A stretch of DNA of 64,000 nucleotides from an uncultured Pseudomonadota bacterium (GTDB taxonomy: Bacteria > Pseudomonadota > Gammaproteobacteria > Burkholderiales > SG8-39). Made by a program: the position numbers and the translations under genes. Positions 58,589 through 64,000 of this stretch are shown piece by piece. Below the pieces are notes generated by a model that worked only from the letters and a program-made list of their open reading frames with translations, made no database searches and had not been told where the DNA came from. Numbering within the stretch: position 1 is the first letter of the stretch; every line of letters starts with the position of its first letter. The stretch spans positions 469,145 to 533,144 of the forward strand of contig CAIXPL010000016.1 in assembly GCA_903921325.1 (NCBI GenBank), read 5' to 3'.

Positions 58589-59587
58589 ATGCAAAACCGT
58601 TCATGGACCACCGTGGCTATTGTCTGTGTGGCGCTCGCGCTCAGCCAGCCTGTCCGTTCGCAGACAGGGGCCAGCACGGCCGCGGCGTCATCATATCCCA
58701 GCCGCCCGGTGAAACTGGTGGCCACCTATCCGCCCGGGGGCAGCTCTGATCTGATGGCGCGCATCCTTGCGCAGAAATTGACCGAGCTGTGGGGCCAGCA
58801 GGTGATCGTCGATAACCGCGCCGGGGCCGCAGGATCGATCGGCATGGAGTACGCCGCGCACCAACCCGCCGATGGCTACAGTTTTGTGATCGGCAATCTG
58901 GGTCCGGCCGCGGTCAATCCGCTGATCACGCCAGTGGCCTATGACGTGGCGCGGGATTTTATTGCGGTGTCGATGATCTGCACCGGCCCGAACATCCTGG
59001 TGGTCAATAGCCAGTCGAGCATGAAGACGGTGCAGGATGTGCTCACCGAGGCACGCGCCCATCCGGGGACGCTCAATTTTGGGTCAGGGGGCACGGGTAG
59101 TCTGGCTCATCTGGGCGGCGAGTTACTGAAGCGCGAGGCATCGATCCAGATCACCCATGTGCCCTACAAAGGCGGGGTGTTGTCGGTGAATGACCTGCTC
59201 GCAGGCCAGGTGCAACTGGTGTTCTCTGATGCGCTGCCGGTGATGCAACACATTCGCGCAGGACGGCTAAGGGCGATCGGGATTACGGCCAGCCAACGCT
59301 CGGCGCTCGCACCGGAGATCGCGACCTTTGTGGAACAGGGGCTCACCGGCCTGGTGGCAACCAACTGGTGGGGGGCACTGCTGCCCGCAGGCACACCGGC
59401 AACCATCGTCGAGCGGCTGCATGATGGGCTGGTGCGGGCATTGGCCACGGCGGATGTGCGCGAGAAATTCGCACTGCTGGGCGTGGAGCCCGGGTCATCC
59501 AGCCCGGAGGCGTTCAAGGCGTTTATTCAGAGTGAAGCGGCACGGTATGGGAAGCTGGTGAAGGAGGCGGGGATCAGGGGGGAGTAG
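58589..59587 (+). CDS. Bug/TctC-family substrate-binding protein
   Basis: Signal peptide followed by YPSRPVKLVATYPPGG and HVPYKGG motifs. Confidence 0.85.
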   Translation: MQNRSWTTVAIVCVALALSQPVRSQTGASTAAASSYPSRPVKLVATYPPGGSSDLMARILAQKLTELWGQQVIVDNRAGAAGSIGMEYAAHQPADGYSFVIGNLGPAAVNPLITPVAYDVARDFIAVSMICTGPNILVVNSQSSMKTVQDVLTEARAHPGTLNFGSGGTGSLAHLGGELLKREASIQITHVPYKGGVLSVNDLLAGQVQLVFSDALPVMQHIRAGRLRAIGITASQRSALAPEIATFVEQGLTGLVATNWWGALLPAGTPATIVERLHDGLVRALATADVREKFALLGVEPGSSSPEAFKAFIQSEAARYGKLVKEAGIRGE

Positions 59588-59595
59588 GGGGGCTT

Positions 59596-60027
59596 ATGTC
59601 TGAATCGACGCGAATACACCCCGACAAGCTCCGGGCGTATCGGGCAAGCGAATACCGAATAGCCCAAGGCCCGCAAGCTATCGTCCTCAGAATCGGTCAG
59701 CGCTCGGCGCCACTGGCTGCCCTGTTTGCCACCCATGGTGCCACCTGCGGTGCGTTCATCACCGCCTGCAATCCGCACGGCACGCAACAGTCGGATGCGG
59801 CTAACGGTGAGTGCAATGCGCGACTGGCTGCGCATCTTCATTCGCTCGGCTTGCTCACTATCGAAGGCGCAGGCAGCGAGCCTGGTACGGACTGGCCAGC
59901 CGAGAAAAGCTTCTTTGTTTTTGGCCTTGCGCTTGCGCCCGCCAAGGCGATTGGCAGGCAGTTTGAGCAGGACGCGATCGTGTGGGTTGGACCTGATGTA
60001 GTGCCGCAATTGATACTGCTTCGGTGA
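59596..60027 (+). CDS. DUF3293-family protein
   Basis: 143 aa. GAFITACNPHG and WPAEKSFFVFG segments match my recollection of DUF3293. Confidence 0.5.
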   Translation: MSESTRIHPDKLRAYRASEYRIAQGPQAIVLRIGQRSAPLAALFATHGATCGAFITACNPHGTQQSDAANGECNARLAAHLHSLGLLTIEGAGSEPGTDWPAEKSFFVFGLALAPAKAIGRQFEQDAIVWVGPDVVPQLILLR

Positions 60028-60115
60028 AAGAGGGGCACTACACAAGGGCTGAGGACATTTGCCGCAGTTTTGCAGGTAACAGCACGCTCATCTGGTGAGC
60101 CACTGATCAGGTAAA

Positions 60116-61174
60116 TTGCCGGGAAGGTATTCGTTTGGGCGAGGCGATTTGTCCACCGGGGTTCACAGGTACGCAGGATCGATTCGAGGCGTGTTGCTCG
60201 CCCTCGCAGTGTTATGCGCGCATGGCGCTTACGCCGATGACTTCGAAGATGGTGTGGAAGCCTATTGGAGCGGTGATTACGCAACAGCACTGGCCAAGCA
60301 TCGCCCTCTGGCTCAGAGCGGCAACACTCGTTCGCAATACCGACTGGGTGTCATGTACGCCCACGGTCAGGGTGTGCGGCGCGATGACCAAGAAGCGCTG
60401 CGCTGGTACCGCCTTGCCGCCGAGCAAGGTGAGGCGTGGGCGCAGTTCAGTTTAGGCACCATGTACGCGCAAGGCTGGGGAGTGCCGCGAGACTACAAAG
60501 CGGCGATGCGCTGGTATCGCCTCAGCGCAGAGCAAGGTGATGCCCGGGCGCAGTACCAATTGGGCGCCATGTACGCCCGCGGCGAAGGGGCTCGGCGCGA
60601 CTACAAAGAAGCCAGGCGTTGGTATCTTCTGGCGGCGGAGCAGGATTTTGCAGATGCGCAGGAGAGTTTGGCTGTCATGTATGTCACCGGCGAGGGTGTA
60701 CGGCAGGACGCCAACGAAGCCCAGCACTGGTACCGCCTCGCTGGCATGCCGCAAGGCATGCATGCCCTGGGTTATCGCATCCCGGAAGATCCCTTTGAGG
60801 CTATACGCTTGATTCGACTCTCCCTTGAGCGAGATGATCAGAACGCGCGCTACAACAAGCAGGGCGATCTGCATAACAAGCCGCGTGGCAACCTGCAGGA
60901 CTACAAAGAAGCGATGCGCTGGTATCGCCTTGCGGCCGAGCAGGGTGATGCGCTGGCGCAGATCACCCTGGGCATGATGTATTACAAAGGCCAGGGCACG
61001 CCGAAGGATTATGTTCACGCCTACCTGTGGGAAACCCTGGCAGCGGCACAGTGGAACGAGAGGGCGGTTGACAACCGAGCCATCGTCGCAAGCAAAATGA
61101 TGCCTTCGCAGCTTGAGCAGGCAAAGACATTGGCCAGGGAATGCGTGGCGAGGAACTTCAAGAGTTGTGATTAG
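60116..61174 (+). CDS. Sel1-repeat (SLR/TPR-like) protein, probably secreted
   Basis: At least five tandem A.Y.LG.MY..G.GV..D...A..WY..AA.QG units. The likely start is TTG 60149, giving the signal peptide ...RGVLLALAVLCAHGAYA. Confidence 0.85.
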   Translation: MPGRYSFGRGDLSTGVHRYAGSIRGVLLALAVLCAHGAYADDFEDGVEAYWSGDYATALAKHRPLAQSGNTRSQYRLGVMYAHGQGVRRDDQEALRWYRLAAEQGEAWAQFSLGTMYAQGWGVPRDYKAAMRWYRLSAEQGDARAQYQLGAMYARGEGARRDYKEARRWYLLAAEQDFADAQESLAVMYVTGEGVRQDANEAQHWYRLAGMPQGMHALGYRIPEDPFEAIRLIRLSLERDDQNARYNKQGDLHNKPRGNLQDYKEAMRWYRLAAEQGDALAQITLGMMYYKGQGTPKDYVHAYLWETLAAAQWNERAVDNRAIVASKMMPSQLEQAKTLARECVARNFKSCD

Positions 61175-61483
61175 GTGCCTGAAACTGCAACCGACTGACA
61201 CACGGGCTTACTCTAAGACCGGCGAGTTACCCTATCCCCTAATCGGAACTCTTTTTCGCGCGAGGTGACCGTTGTAGGCGAAAAAGTAAGTCGAGAAGCA
61301 GGGAGAAATCTCGCGTGCTCCCTGGAAACCACGAGGTGGCCTTATTTTTGGCGGAACTGGTCAGCGCGTACCTTGCCCGCCAGGTTCGCTCACGCGCAAG
61401 AACATGCGTGGAGTACGCTAGTGGGACTGGTATACGATCTGCCAAAAGCCCGTCAACTTTGGCAATCTTGGACACTTTTCTTG

Positions 61484-61681
61484 ATGGTCAAGCCTAAATT
61501 TCGCATCCGGACGATCACCGAAGTCGCTGAAGACCTCAAGGCTGTCGAGCGGACTCATTACCGTATGGCTGCCGCCGAGATGGTGCCAGCCTTAAAAAAC
61601 GGAGGAACCTGGCGTTTCCCGCGGGTCGACGTCGATAGCTGGATCGGGCAGCAGTCGATGGGGACTCGAAACCATTCGTGA
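61484..61681 (+). CDS. excisionase/AlpA-type helix-turn-helix (HTH_17-like) DNA-binding protein
   Basis: 65 aa. TITEVAEDLKAVERTHYRMAAAEMVPALKNGGTWRFPRVDVDSWI follows the HTH_17 pattern (..RWRF....L..WI). Confidence 0.6.
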   Translation: MVKPKFRIRTITEVAEDLKAVERTHYRMAAAEMVPALKNGGTWRFPRVDVDSWIGQQSMGTRNHS

Positions 61682-61729
61682 ACAAGATAGCGATGCCACT
61701 GGCGAAACGAACAATGGAGAGCGAAAGTA

Positions 61730-64000
61730 ATGCTTGGACTGACTCTACGAGAAGAATTTCGGGGTAGTCGCCTCAAAGGCACAGCCATTGAGCTCTCCAA
61801 CGACACGAACACCGGCGCGACTCAGATCACAGCCCAGGAGTTCTTGGAGATTACGTATCCAACCCATGACCTGCTAAAGGGGATTGAGGCTGTCGGCCCG
61901 AACCAGGGGCGTCCGGTTGTGGTGATCGGCGAACGGGGCCTAGGAAAATCTCACTTGATGGCTGCGCTGTACCACGCGCTGAACGATACGAAATCGACGG
62001 GTGCGTGGCTGAAATCCTGGGCCACCACCTTGGGCGACCCGCAGATCAGCCAGATCGGGTTGCGCAGCGGAATGATGGTGATCGGAGAGAGCCTTCACCG
62101 GCAGCGCAACAAGTTTCTATGGGACTTGCTTTTCGAGCGCCATCCCAATGGCACCTACATCAAGGGCAAGTGGGAGGGTATGGGCGCAGCGAAAACCGAC
62201 ATCCCGTCCGACAAGCTGATTCTTGAGCTGTTGCAGCACACGCCGACGATGCTGCTTCTGGACGAATTCCAGACGTGGTACGACGGCCTGACCAACACCA
62301 AGCAGTACCCCTGGAAGAACTGGGCGTTCAACTTCATCCAGATCCTGTCCGAGATCGCCAAGGAGCATCCGGAACTGCTGGTGCTCGTGATTTCGGTTCG
62401 CAACGGTGGCAGCGACGCCTATCAACAAGTGCATCGCGTCAATCCGGTCGCCATCGACTTTATGGCGGGCGGCAACCCCGAGCGGGTCCAGCAGGATCGA
62501 CGCCGGATGCTGCTGCATCGTTTGTTCACCAACCGGCTTCAGATCACTAAGGCCCAGATCGCTTCGCTCATTGAATCTCACGTGACCGAGAGCTTGCGTT
62601 TGATGGAGGTGCCCACCGCTGAGCACGAGCGCAAGCGTAAGGAATTCCTTGTCTCTTGGCCGTTTGCCCCGCATCTGCTGCGCCTGCTTGAAGAACAGGT
62701 GCTGATCGCCACAGATGCCCAGGACAAACGCGACATGATTCGCATCCTGGCCAACCTCTACAAGAGTCGTGGCGAGATGGCCCCGGTGCTCACGGCTGCG
62801 GACTTCCGTCTTGACGACGATGCTTCGGGTATTGGCGCGCTGCTCGACTCCGTTTCCAATGCGCATCACCGAACACTGCGTGCGAAGGCTCAGCAAAACA
62901 TTATTTCGGTTACCGAGGCAGTCTCCGACCACGCCAACCTTGCCCCGCACCTCCAGGAGATCGTGAGCGCGTTGTGGCTGCGATCCATTGCTGTCGGCAA
63001 CTTGGCTGGTGCCGAACCGGCAACCCTGCAGGTCGACATCACGCGCACGAAGGCCGTTGACGACAACGCCTTCCAGGTGGAGCTAGCGACCATCGTCGAG
63101 AACAGCTTCAACATCCACCAAGAAGGCCCCCGGCTCGTCTTCAAGGAGGAAGAGAACCCTCGCGCCAAGCTGATGGCTTGTGCTCGAAACGACAAGCTGT
63201 TCACGGACCGCTCTGACCAAGCCCAGCTTGCCAAGGAGGTTCGCTACGTGATCGGTGGCACCGAAGAGGTCGCCAAGACCTTCCGTGTGATCGCGCTACC
63301 GAAGGCTTGGCAGACCGATCCTTGGGTCAGTCTGGATGAAGCTGAGCAACCGGAGCGTTGGGACGACCGCCTGCCCGTTTTGGTGCTGCCAGAGGAACCG
63401 GACAACATCGACCAGCGCCTGGGCCGCTGGATCAAAGATCATCTGCAGAAGCGCCGCAACACCATCCGCTTCCTGCTGCCGCGATCCGGCTCCACCAATG
63501 CCTTCCTGGATCGCGACCTGTTGATCCTGGCGCGTGCTGAGATGAAGGCGCAGGAATGGAGCGGCCAAAGCCCCGAGTACAAGAAACTGCACACCGAGTA
63601 CCAAGGGGCGCTGCGCGACATCCTGAAAAAGCGCTTCGACCGTTTCGCGGTTCTGCATCGCTGGAATTTCGCAGATCCGAGTCAGTGCGTATTCAGCGTC
63701 GAGAGCCTGAAAAAGCAAGGGGCTCAGATTCCCGAGTGCATCGAGGAGGCGCTGATTAACGATCTGTTCGTGCCCGAGGACTTTGAAGACCTCGTGCTCG
63801 AAGCTGCGGCAGACAACTCGGCCGTTGGCAAGCTGCTGCGCGAGCTGCAAGAGCCTCGCCCTGCTGGTCAGGACTGCATTCCTTGGCTTGGCGAAACCGC
63901 AATGAAGGAACGCATCCTGCGGCTGTGCGCGCGGGGCAAGGTCGTCATCAACTTGCGCGGCCGTGACTACTTGCAGACCCAGCCTGGCGAGGATGAAGAC
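61730..64000 (+). CDS. DUF499/COG1483-like P-loop ATPase (BrxC/PglY-related), 5' partial; the gene runs off the window end
   Basis: My own translation gives ATG 61730 (GGAGA 9 nt upstream) open for 757 codons to the window edge. Walker A GERGLGKS lies at 61928-61951 and Walker B MLLLDEF at 62249-62269. ITYPTHDLL...SHLMAALYHAL and WPFAPHLLRLLEEQ resemble DUF499. The ORF is not in the supplied track. Confidence 0.65.
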   Translation, partial: MLGLTLREEFRGSRLKGTAIELSNDTNTGATQITAQEFLEITYPTHDLLKGIEAVGPNQGRPVVVIGERGLGKSHLMAALYHALNDTKSTGAWLKSWATTLGDPQISQIGLRSGMMVIGESLHRQRNKFLWDLLFERHPNGTYIKGKWEGMGAAKTDIPSDKLILELLQHTPTMLLLDEFQTWYDGLTNTKQYPWKNWAFNFIQILSEIAKEHPELLVLVISVRNGGSDAYQQVHRVNPVAIDFMAGGNPERVQQDRRRMLLHRLFTNRLQITKAQIASLIESHVTESLRLMEVPTAEHERKRKEFLVSWPFAPHLLRLLEEQVLIATDAQDKRDMIRILANLYKSRGEMAPVLTAADFRLDDDASGIGALLDSVSNAHHRTLRAKAQQNIISVTEAVSDHANLAPHLQEIVSALWLRSIAVGNLAGAEPATLQVDITRTKAVDDNAFQVELATIVENSFNIHQEGPRLVFKEEENPRAKLMACARNDKLFTDRSDQAQLAKEVRYVIGGTEEVAKTFRVIALPKAWQTDPWVSLDEAEQPERWDDRLPVLVLPEEPDNIDQRLGRWIKDHLQKRRNTIRFLLPRSGSTNAFLDRDLLILARAEMKAQEWSGQSPEYKKLHTEYQGALRDILKKRFDRFAVLHRWNFADPSQCVFSVESLKKQGAQIPECIEEALINDLFVPEDFEDLVLEAAADNSAVGKLLRELQEPRPAGQDCIPWLGETAMKERILRLCARGKVVINLRGRDYLQTQPGEDED

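Follow-up and report, generated by a model that had tools for sequence, protein, structure and literature searches.

Genes and features at the window edge

The window, that is, the whole stretch of 64,000 nt that was analysed, ends inside a long open reading frame (ORF) preceded by a small gene for a DNA-binding protein. The features of this terminal segment are listed here by position.

61484–61681, plus strand: 65-aa HTH_17/excisionase-family DNA-binding gene (Pfam HTH_17, TIGR01764)
61504–61505, no strand: left limit of the DNA match with related cassettes, located seven codons inside the HTH ORF (blastn)
61716–61720, plus strand: Shine–Dalgarno-like GGAGA, 9 nt before the ATG (read directly)
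61730–64000, plus strand: DUF499-family AAA+ ATPase, residues 1–757 (open frame, Pfam DUF499; cut by the window edge)
61928–61951, plus strand: Walker A motif GERGLGKS (read from the translation)
62201–62752, plus strand: Pfam DUF499-matching segment, residues 158–341
62249–62269, plus strand: Walker B motif MLLLDEF (read from the translation)

Translation from the ATG at 61730 gives a frame without an in-frame stop for 757 codons, up to base 64000, as an earlier note on this DNA had reported. The GGAGA and both Walker motifs were likewise recovered exactly where that note had placed them. The ORF is indeed absent from the supplied ORF track, only because ORFs running off the end go unlisted. 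The full-length ATPase measures ~912 aa; thus, ~155 codons are missing past the edge and the window holds the first 83 % of the gene. Residues G70, G72 and K73 of Walker A and D178 and E179 of Walker B are invariant in a 13-sequence alignment that reaches down to 19 % identity. More than 2300 homologues were found, the best 120 of which are 87–95 % identical over 100 % of the 757 residues; by this homology the ORF is therefore a real gene and not a chance ORF.

The upstream gene ends 48 nt before the ATPase ATG. Its product scores above the cut-offs of both Pfam HTH_17 (PF12728; 31.5 bits vs 27) and TIGR01764 ‘excise’ (33.5 bits vs 28.8), in agreement with the earlier description of an HTH_17/excisionase-type gene. 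In ~60 % of relatives the gene immediately before the ATPase gene is a homologue (45–68 % identity), and a CopG-like RHH gene takes its place on a Ca. Tenderia plasmid. Besides the HTH gene, nothing upstream of the ATPase gene is conserved in the relatives’ loci. For the cassette described below, the HTH gene is an upstream accessory that is not always present; its product is likely a transcriptional regulator and probably controls transcription of the operon. The one exact match to the HTH protein comes from a metagenome contig of 2.1 kb, which ends where the ATPase gene starts. Except for one mismatch and the final few bases, this contig is identical to the window.

When positions 59000–64000 were compared with 82 loci by blastn, ~15 loci began to match exactly at 61504–61505, and a second group began to match only at 61701–61713. 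Judged from these alignment ends, 61504–61505 is a probable recombination junction of a mobile cassette with local DNA. GC content is 0.54–0.56 at 61000–61750, 0.60–0.65 upstream and 0.58–0.61 inside the ATPase gene, so that the lower GC noted earlier for this region is seen as a modest dip at the junction. No tRNA gene or tRNA integration site is present within 14 kb, and promoter, terminator and repeat scans of 61100–61800 returned nothing notable.

Family membership of the ATPase

The window fragment scores 30.3 bits against Pfam DUF499 (PF04465; gathering cut-off 23, E 1.3e-7), a match that spans only model positions 76–264 of 1024; a full-length relative of the ATPase reaches 35.7 bits. 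The best 120 homologues are 905–941 aa long, with one listed match of 839 aa, and those annotated are named ‘DUF499 domain-containing protein’. Archaeal (haloarchaeal) proteins annotated as DUF499 are matched by tblastn over residues 4–487 at 22–26 % identity (E 1e-10 to 1e-21), and HEPN-fused Thermus proteins are matched at E 5e-5 to 5e-4. On these profile and pairwise matches the product of 61730–64000 is a DUF499-family AAA+ ATPase, the assignment that the earlier note had made from sequence motifs.

The architecture used as a criterion for DUF499 proteins is an ORC/Cdc6-type AAA+ domain followed by a wHTH, an alpha+beta, a second wHTH and a C-terminal RRM-like domain. The ATPase has weak profile matches to AAA_16, DnaA, Hda and ORC-CDC6-like families, and its C-terminus in relatives consists of a Gly/Pro-rich linker (‘GGLFGGG’) and a small C-terminal domain. 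Searches against solved structures (phmmer, and shallow and deeper profiles against PDB) returned nothing beyond the Walker-A region. An AlphaFold2 model of the full-length protein, made with 64 close homologues, had a pLDDT of 38 and a pTM of 0.28, and a fold search with it gave noise. The ATPase is not called by the PADLOC 2023 models (HmaC, 15.7 bits, E 8e-4).

The earlier note had counted BrxC/PglY as members of DUF499. These proteins are now assigned to DUF6079, a family related to DUF499 but distinct from it (PMC12839542). The Walker-A signature GxGKSH[LF] is common to the ATPase and to BrxC of pEFER. Beyond the Walker-A region no link to BrxC was detected at the sequence level: Pfam DUF6079 gives 9.3 bits with a full-length relative, on the P-loop only; hhalign against pEFER BrxC gives 2–16 % probability, at the Walker-A region only; and neither a PADLOC search of the ATPase nor its profile search of PDB matched BrxC.

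The cassette in relatives and its system type

The window stops at ATPase residue 757, and the partner genes are known from relatives. In nearly all of the ~60 loci with enough flank, the ATPase gene is followed in a conserved order by genes for a 330-aa PglZ protein, a 1076-aa DUF1156-type N6-methyltransferase, a 166-aa protein and a 922-aa SNF2 helicase. The Ca. Tenderia plasmid has the same order, with 64 % identity, and haloarchaea have the order DUF499–‘alkaline phosphatase’–methyltransferase–small protein. The ATPase gene is in relatives the first large gene before the methyltransferase and helicase genes, which bears out the suggestion that it forms the 5′ start of a defence or DNA-modification locus. 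By synteny, the DNA beyond 64000 would encode the ATPase C-terminus, a PglZ protein of phosphodiesterase/nuclease type that stands alone, an N6-adenine methyltransferase of the DUF1156 type whose target-recognition insert is variable, the 166-aa protein and, last, a nuclease-less SNF2 (BrxHII-like) helicase. Current annotation leaves two of the cassette genes as ‘hypothetical’, and neither PGAP nor PADLOC 2023 recognises the system.

A shallow profile of the 330-aa protein matched neither PDB entries nor PglZ; the profile matches to PglZ came from a deeper profile, built from an exhaustive search of representatives. With 38 diverse relatives, this profile matched the ‘PglZ domain-containing protein’ 9nv3_C in PDB (E 5.6e-7), and hhalign gave 82.5 % probability against pEFER PglZ and 99.3 % (E 5e-20) against the archaeal ‘alkaline phosphatase’. 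Pfam PglZ matches 9 of the 38. The top 14 Foldseek matches are to PorX (E 9e-8 to 1.5e-5), followed by the BREX PglZ 9zn5_B. Four residues (D97, S100, D191 and D238) do not vary, and three histidines (H195, H239 and H312) are conserved to 90 % or more. By profile and fold comparison, the protein is, in relatives, a standalone PglZ with predicted metal-site residues.

The methyltransferase matches N6_N4_Mtase at 33.5 bits (cut-off 26.7), DUF1156 at 17.1 bits (under the cut-off of 24) and, in part, NCBIfam DUF1156_antiphage at 84 bits; it also matches HmaB (108 bits) and PglXI (70 bits). Its variable central segment, the TRD insert, lies at residues ~360–680. The helicase has SNF2, Helicase_C and ResIII domains, and among the PADLOC models it scores highest with BrxHI|BrxHII (333 bits). 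Pfam searches detected no nuclease domain in it. Its match to HmaA (299 bits) ends at HmaA position 652 of 1176, before the nuclease of that protein, and the NCBIfam PLD-helicase model matches the helicase core only. The 166-aa protein had no match in Pfam, PADLOC or NCBIfam, none to pEFER BrxB by hhalign, no real match in PDB and no significant match to the archaeal small protein. This protein also occurs in Pseudomonas aeruginosa and Stenotrophomonas genomes.

A Type-3 DUF499-centred BREX-Related (BR) system was defined bioinformatically in 2026 (Rakesh & Krishnan, NAR 2026, PMC12839542), with Hma (Type-1) and MANTIS, formerly Gao_RL (Type-2), as sister subtypes. Type-3 BR is set apart from Types 1 and 2 by PglZ together with a nuclease-less helicase, and 82 % of Type-3 BR taxa have an inactive STAND (iSTAND; BrxB/BrxF-like) protein (PMC12839542). 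The present clade is similar in its DUF499 ATPase and, as seen in relatives, in PglZ as a separate standalone gene, an N6-methyltransferase of the DUF1156 type that carries a TRD insert, a Swi2/Snf2 helicase not fused to a nuclease and a small conserved gene at the place expected for iSTAND; both occur in bacteria and haloarchaea. It differs in that an HTH_17 gene, unmentioned in PMC12839542, is often present upstream. For the relatives’ 166-aa protein, which may be the iSTAND, no similarity to BrxB was detected. The likeness is one of architecture: accessions or motifs of the clade were not found in the supplements of PMC12839542, because the alignments are stored as images, and the representatives KAA0250883.1 and EKO9556875.1 are absent among the cluster lists shown.

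Taken together, positions 61484–64000 are best read as the 5′ end of a horizontally mobile Type-3 DUF499-centred BR defence cassette, with a probability of roughly 0.75. The system type, earlier held to be unassignable, can now be assigned from relatives, with any partner genes in this genome lying beyond 64000, as the note had said. The option of a three-gene locus of DUF499, DUF1156 methyltransferase and helicase holds for the latter two genes in relatives but falls short of the five found, PglZ included. The idea of a non-standard arrangement has to be given up, as the arrangement is standard for the Type-3 BR subtype (PMC12839542).

By analogy with MANTIS and BREX, the ATPase would be an ATP-driven scaffold and loader that positions the methyltransferase at short asymmetric sites, where methylation would mark host DNA as self. 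The same ATPase–methyltransferase complex would also recognize such sites when they are unmarked, as on DNA entering from a phage or plasmid. It would then engage PglZ and the SNF2 translocase, so that the foreign DNA is blocked or cut. PglZ would probably dock via the small protein, which may be the inactive-STAND adaptor, in the way that BrxB links PglZ to BrxC.

It is possible, but doubtful, that the clade is instead a distinct, nuclease-free, minimal BREX-like machine, in which the 166-aa protein would be a new adaptor and not iSTAND, the linker would be functional and PglZ would be the sole effector. The ‘GGLFGGG’ linker may then have a function of its own, e.g. in multivalent or condensate-like assembly. 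Such a machine would offer the simplest tractable setting in which to study how phage DNA is stopped by PglZ-based systems.

Mobility of the cassette and comparison with known systems

More than 80 genomes encode relatives of the ATPase at 78–96 % identity, as do 40 plasmids (34 conjugative); none were found on phages. The nearest among species-representative genomes is 96 % identical. The clade spans Alpha-, Beta- and Gammaproteobacteria, is carried by clinical Klebsiella and related Enterobacteriaceae on conjugative plasmids, and has integrases near its cassettes. Known defence modules are often embedded inside the relatives’ cassette, namely SIR2-HerA, Iet (IetAS), Ppl and type I R-M, as is a MazF-like toxin. 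The cassette is a horizontally mobile carrier of other defence modules.

Disrupted copies also occur, in a few relatives. In Hydrogenophaga defluvii, the closest isolate, the methyltransferase gene is broken by a serine-recombinase element, and the genes for the 166-aa protein and the helicase were not found within 5.5 kb. The locus of another relative (L065) is rearranged too, and many Klebsiella plasmids retain only ATPase residues 214 onward. Such copies, together with a left junction that falls inside the HTH ORF and partner genes that lie outside the window, would fit an orphan ATPase gene or a truncated or decayed cassette, a defence-island remnant with no functional system past 64000. 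However, the 757 codons are intact, free of frameshifts and 95 % identical to full-length relatives, and the cassette is complete in nearly all relatives with enough flank; a remnant is thus unlikely.

A primary role other than defence, as a plasmid/ICE maintenance or epigenetic-regulation module (e.g. methylation-based addiction or competitor exclusion), could account for the location mostly on conjugative plasmids and integrase-bearing islands and for the very high conservation across distant hosts. It would also agree with the literature, in which no phage test of, or other experiment on, any Type-3 BR system was found. However, known anti-phage modules are repeatedly embedded in the cassette, experiments have shown restriction of phage and plasmids by the homologous Type-1 and Type-2 systems, and plasmid restriction itself counts as a defence function, which together make this role very unlikely. 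As a Type-3 BR locus, the window adds one more copy of a widespread defence cassette, and because the family was already catalogued in 2026 a single new copy changes little. Its value lies in the context: the clade is highly conserved, plasmid-borne and carries other defence modules, and the restriction step of BREX-like immunity would be convenient to study in a compact system of five genes that has a 330-aa PglZ and lacks a nuclease.

Among the sister systems, MANTIS shares with the present clade a homologous DUF499 ATPase (MtsA) and an N6-methyltransferase (MtsC; preprint 10.64898/2026.09.23.753747). In the experimentally supported model for MANTIS, the methyltransferase is loaded in an ATPase-dependent way, asymmetric sites become hemimethylated and restriction relies on a second ATPase motor (preprint 10.64898/2026.09.23.753747). 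However, MANTIS has a small protein (MtsB), given as DUF3780 in PMC12839542 and as DUF3870 in the preprint 10.64898/2026.09.23.753747, and a helicase–PLD nuclease (MtsD), whereas the relatives’ cassette has PglZ, another small protein and a nuclease-less helicase. Hma (HmaA/B/C) shares the triad of DUF499 ATPase, DUF1156 methyltransferase and SNF2 helicase (PMC11232893), and both operons harbour insertions of other defence genes. Unlike the relatives’ cassette, Hma lacks PglZ, and it requires for defence a PD-(D/E)XK nickase domain at the C-terminus of HmaA (PMC11232893). Assignment of the ATPase to one of these nuclease–helicase DUF499 systems would be consistent with the common ATPase family, with its weak HmaC match and with the HmaB and HmaA matches of the relatives’ methyltransferase and helicase. 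Such an assignment is nevertheless most improbable given the relatives’ genes: their helicase carries neither a PD-(D/E)XK nor a PLD/HKD nuclease, and no DUF3780 gene was found in them, a standalone PglZ gene being present instead.

MADS, the methylation-associated defence system (mad1–mad8), is also a methylation-based multi-ATPase operon that begins with a similar small HTH gene (preprint 10.1101/2023.03.30.534895), and in both NCBIfam and PADLOC the HTH protein finds its best match in MAD1 (50 and 24 bits, respectively); this MAD1-like HTH prompted MADS as a candidate. MADS was rejected after the neighbours in relatives were scored, and can be regarded as virtually discounted: the NCBIfam score is under the equivalog cut-off of 80, mad2 encodes a methyltransferase and MAD6–8 are mandatory markers (preprint 10.1101/2023.03.30.534895), the ATPase matches mad8 at the P-loop only, the relatives’ neighbours have no mad3–mad7 matches, and every other component differs.

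Equally hard to sustain is an identity of the ATPase as the BrxC/PglY component of BREX or Pgl in canonical form. This identity would account for a P-loop ATPase that is similar in size and sits in a defence context linked to methylation, for the Walker-A signature shared with pEFER BrxC and for the PglZ of relatives. However, beyond the failed DUF6079 and BrxC matches, no brxA or brxB lies upstream, where the HTH_17 gene and a Sel1-repeat gene are found, in line with the earlier observation that both brx genes are missing on that side. Additionally, the relatives’ methyltransferase is DUF1156/PglXI-like, neither BrxL nor PglW is present, and their PglZ is a 330-aa standalone form vs ~850 aa in BREX. 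Compared with BREX types 1 and 3, the cassette thus differs in an ATPase of DUF499 and not DUF6079, a PglZ reduced to a minimal standalone domain and the lack of BrxA and BrxL. The PglZ is nonetheless homologous, the helicase has its best PADLOC model in BrxHI|BrxHII, and all five cassette proteins have functional counterparts in BREX (BrxC, PglZ, BrxB/BrxF, PglXI and BrxHII). The published BrxC–PglZ–BrxB complex of BREX could serve as a model for how the cassette proteins assemble.

The ATPase gene at the right edge of the window

The window ends within the ATPase gene, at residue 757. Two ordinary genes stand directly upstream of the HTH and ATPase genes, with no integrase visible on that side.

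58589–59587: Bug-family (tripartite tricarboxylate transporter) binding protein
60116–61174: Sel1-repeat protein
61484–61681: HTH gene, 65 aa
61716–61720: GGAGA, 9 nt before the ATG
61730–64000: ATPase gene
61928–61951: Walker A, GERGLGKS
62249–62269: Walker B, MLLLDEF

An earlier note had read this arrangement from the sequence alone, and its details were borne out. Translation from ATG 61730 meets no stop in 757 codons and reaches base 64000, the GGAGA and both Walker motifs lie where they had been placed, the 65-aa ORF stops 48 nt short of the ATG, and GC content is lower around 61000–61750 (0.54–0.56) than upstream (0.60–0.65). The ATPase ORF is indeed absent from the ORF track, for the sole reason that the track omits ORFs running off the end. 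It is a real gene, with more than 2300 homologues, the best 120 of which are 87–95 % identical across all 757 residues. These 120 are 905–941 aa long, apart from one of 839 aa; the window therefore lacks the last ~155 codons. In full-length relatives (for example P0002, residues ~785–850) the part beyond the window edge comprises a Gly/Pro-rich low-complexity linker with GGLFGGG/GGIFGGG repeats, followed by a conserved domain of ~70 aa. Because of this linker, one homologue is annotated as a ‘nucleoporin FG repeat-containing protein’. No tRNA gene was found near the ATPase and HTH genes.

The ATPase had also been described as a BrxC/PglY-like member of the DUF499 family. Membership in DUF499 held (Pfam, 30.3 bits against a cut-off of 23, limited to residues 158–341), but no sequence link to BrxC was detected past the GxGKSH Walker A signature, even when the profile reached Neff 3.1. 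The label ‘BrxC-like’ therefore rests on published structural comparisons of the DUF499 family. Below threshold, profile searches returned AAA_16, NACHT, DnaA, Hda and ORC-CDC6-like models, which fit a predicted ORC/Cdc6/STAND-type AAA+ core; PADLOC (2023) returned a weak match to HmaC alone (15.7 bits). In tblastn searches of plasmids, residues 4–487 aligned with haloarchaeal proteins annotated as DUF499 (22–26 % identity, E down to 1e-21) and with HEPN-fused ‘Swt1’ proteins of Thermus, a HEPN–DUF499 variant known from Type-1 BREX-Related (BR) systems. Residues G70, G72, K73, D178 and E179 do not vary down to 19 % identity, and the ATPase site is therefore probably active. Structure prediction was poor (pLDDT 38), and a fold search with that model was meaningless.

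Cassette order and left junction in relatives

The genes expected 3′ of the ATPase gene were taken from relatives, and the comparison covered 80 loci and two further contigs from metagenomes or isolates; the closest species representative is 96 % identical. A tblastn map revealed a single conserved order: the ATPase gene, optionally preceded by an HTH gene, and then four further genes (g3–g6). No further conserved genes flank the cassette on either side in the relatives.

Genes following the ATPase gene in relatives, in order
g3: 329–340 aa, after the ATPase gene; PglZ
g4: ~1076 aa, after g3; methyltransferase
g5: 165–173 aa, after g4
g6: ~922 aa, after g5; SNF2 helicase

A similar series is found on haloarchaeal plasmids: behind the DUF499 gene come genes for an ‘alkaline phosphatase’ and a DNA methyltransferase, then a small gene. 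The cassette is disrupted in a few relatives, among them the closest isolate, Hydrogenophaga defluvii (L004). Its methyltransferase gene diverges past residue ~1016, where an inserted element (L004:16786–18446) codes for a large serine recombinase of 455 aa; neither g5 nor g6 was found in the 5.5 kb left after this element.

The HTH protein, earlier called excisionase-type, does pass the HTH_17 and TIGR01764 ‘excise’ domain models; among named models, the MAD1 protein of MADS matches it best (50 bits, under the model cut-off of 80). In ~15 related cassettes, DNA homology to the window begins abruptly at 61504–61505, seven codons into the HTH ORF, and in a second group of relatives at 61701–61713. 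The left junction of the cassette is thus placed at ~61504, the ATG and first seven codons of the HTH gene derive from non-homologous DNA, and the HTH gene is an exchangeable accessory. The abruptness of the first boundary suggests a recombination junction. A Ca. Tenderia plasmid carries an equivalent set of six genes (ATPase identity 61–64 %) in which a 65-aa CopG-like ribbon-helix-helix gene (L086:8763–8957) takes the position of the HTH_17 gene; hence the small upstream DNA-binding gene is exchangeable between cassettes. Additionally, the single contig found to share the window's own sequence, from a metagenome (L003; ENA ERZ27229610 k141_56576), reproduces the window from 59653 to ~61785 with one mismatch, apart from the last few bases, which differ. 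It stops ~55 nt past the start of the ATPase gene; this assembly break coincides exactly with the beginning of a widely shared cassette.

Neither g3 nor g5 matched Pfam, NCBIfam or PADLOC. The AlphaFold2 model of g3 is weak (pLDDT 54, pTM 0.61), but the fold search with it was coherent, with 14 chains of PorX at the top (E 9e-8 to 1.5e-5), followed by the BREX PglZ 9zn5_B and then NPP enzymes. An exhaustive HMMER search found 394 relatives of g3, and a profile of 38 full-length ones (29–59 % identity) matched the ‘PglZ domain-containing protein’ 9nv3_C in the PDB with E 5.6e-7, and PorX with ~4e-3. By hhalign, g3 pairs with the pEFER BREX PglZ at 82.5 % probability, aligning ITSDHGY with ITADHGF and HGGLSLLEV-VP with HGGAMLQEVCVP, and with the haloarchaeal ‘alkaline phosphatase’ at 99.3 % (E 5e-20). 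The Pfam PglZ model itself matches 9 of the 38 relatives. Taken together, profiles and fold identify g3 as a PglZ. In the 38-relative profile no substitutions occur at D97, S100, D191 or D238, and H195, H239 and H312 each reach 90 % conservation or more, which makes an active metal site likely.

The g4 gene encodes a DUF1156/PglXI/HmaB-type N6-adenine methyltransferase. Its divergence is concentrated at residues ~360–680, as expected for a target-recognition insert. The SNF2 helicase g6 has BrxHI|BrxHII as its top PADLOC model (333 bits); it contains no nuclease domain, and its match to HmaA ends before the HmaA nuclease. No match was found for g5 against the pEFER BrxB, the PDB or the archaeal small protein.

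Embedded modules and mobility

The cassette carries an embedded module in about 45 % of loci, most often in the g3–g4 interval. It contains internal insertion hotspots for complete known defence modules.

Modules embedded in the cassette
SIR2+HerA: 8 loci
IetA+IetS: 9 loci
Ppl: 3 loci
MazF-like toxin; type I R-M: each embedded in the cassette
AAA_15/AAA_21 ATPase with DUF4276, or HATPase_c_4–TPR protein: between g5 and g6
Examples between g3 and g4: L008:13741–16620, L023:13777–17420, L042:4001–6799, L013:13842–15229, L065:15639–21281
Examples between g5 and g6: L002:17483–19262, L083:17632–19455

Several unannotated genes of 306–321, 253, 153 and 173–195 aa also recur in these inserts, and could be defence candidates.

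The ATPase was found on no phages but on 40 plasmids, of which 34 are conjugative and 28 come from Klebsiella. On pKPN-262 the NCBI gene names run HTH, DUF499, hypothetical, SIR2, ATP-binding, DUF1156, hypothetical and SNF2-related. In two of the related loci, L001 and L002, there are integrase genes no more than 8 kb away. Many Klebsiella and Enterobacter plasmids of 120–160 kb (plasmid matches H25–H38) retain the ATPase from residue 214 onward only, often at an identical plasmid coordinate (14256–15086), which suggests that a 5′-truncated copy spread with one plasmid lineage. MAGs bearing the labels Akkermansiaceae, Pirellulales, Gemmatales, Acidobacteria and Chlorobiaceae also contain copies, at 80–92 % identity (L018, L025, L033, L048, L065, L067). 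Several of these copies sit on short contigs and may reflect binning errors; the 118-kb Acidobacteriaceae and 57-kb Chlorobiaceae contigs are more credible signs of inter-phylum transfer.

Proposed mechanism and relation to known systems

Three DUF499-centred BR subtypes have been defined (Rakesh and Krishnan, NAR 2026; PMC12839542). Type-3 is described there as a DUF499 ATPase, a DUF1156-type methyltransferase, a BrxHII-like helicase whose nuclease has been lost, an active PglZ that stands alone and is nearly universal and, in 82 % of taxa, an inactive STAND protein. Four of these five features are found in the cassette of the relatives; for the fifth, position and size make it plausible that g5 is the iSTAND protein. 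The supplements of that study gave no confirmation of this exact clade in the authors' set, and the papers found contain no experiments on any Type-3 BR system.

In MANTIS, the DUF499 ATPase MtsA puts the methyltransferase on DNA, and methylation requires nucleotide binding and a small partner protein; self is marked by hemimethylated asymmetric 6-bp sites, and the same complex triggers a helicase–nuclease on unmodified DNA (10.64898/2026.09.23.753747). In BREX, PglZ–BrxB is bound by BrxC dimers, stimulating ATPase activity and DNA binding. The ATPase of the window may likewise act as an ATP-dependent scaffold and methyltransferase loader, and also as a docking platform for PglZ, perhaps via g5. 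Translocation would come from the SNF2 motor and restriction activity from PglZ, with the operon presumably regulated by the HTH protein.

MADS was ruled out because the HTH protein is the sole resemblance. Canonical BREX was likewise ruled out: brxA/brxB and a DUF6079 match are lacking, and the PglZ is minimal. The earlier interpretation of a defence or DNA-modification locus is supported and sharpened, the system type now being drawn from relatives. Of the other subtypes, Type-1 is Hma, in which the helicase–nickase HmaA defends against T4 (PMC11232893), and Type-2 is MANTIS/Gao_RL, with its mechanism reported in September 2026; the comparison supports placing the feature in Type-3 BR, a subtype already known and recently catalogued.
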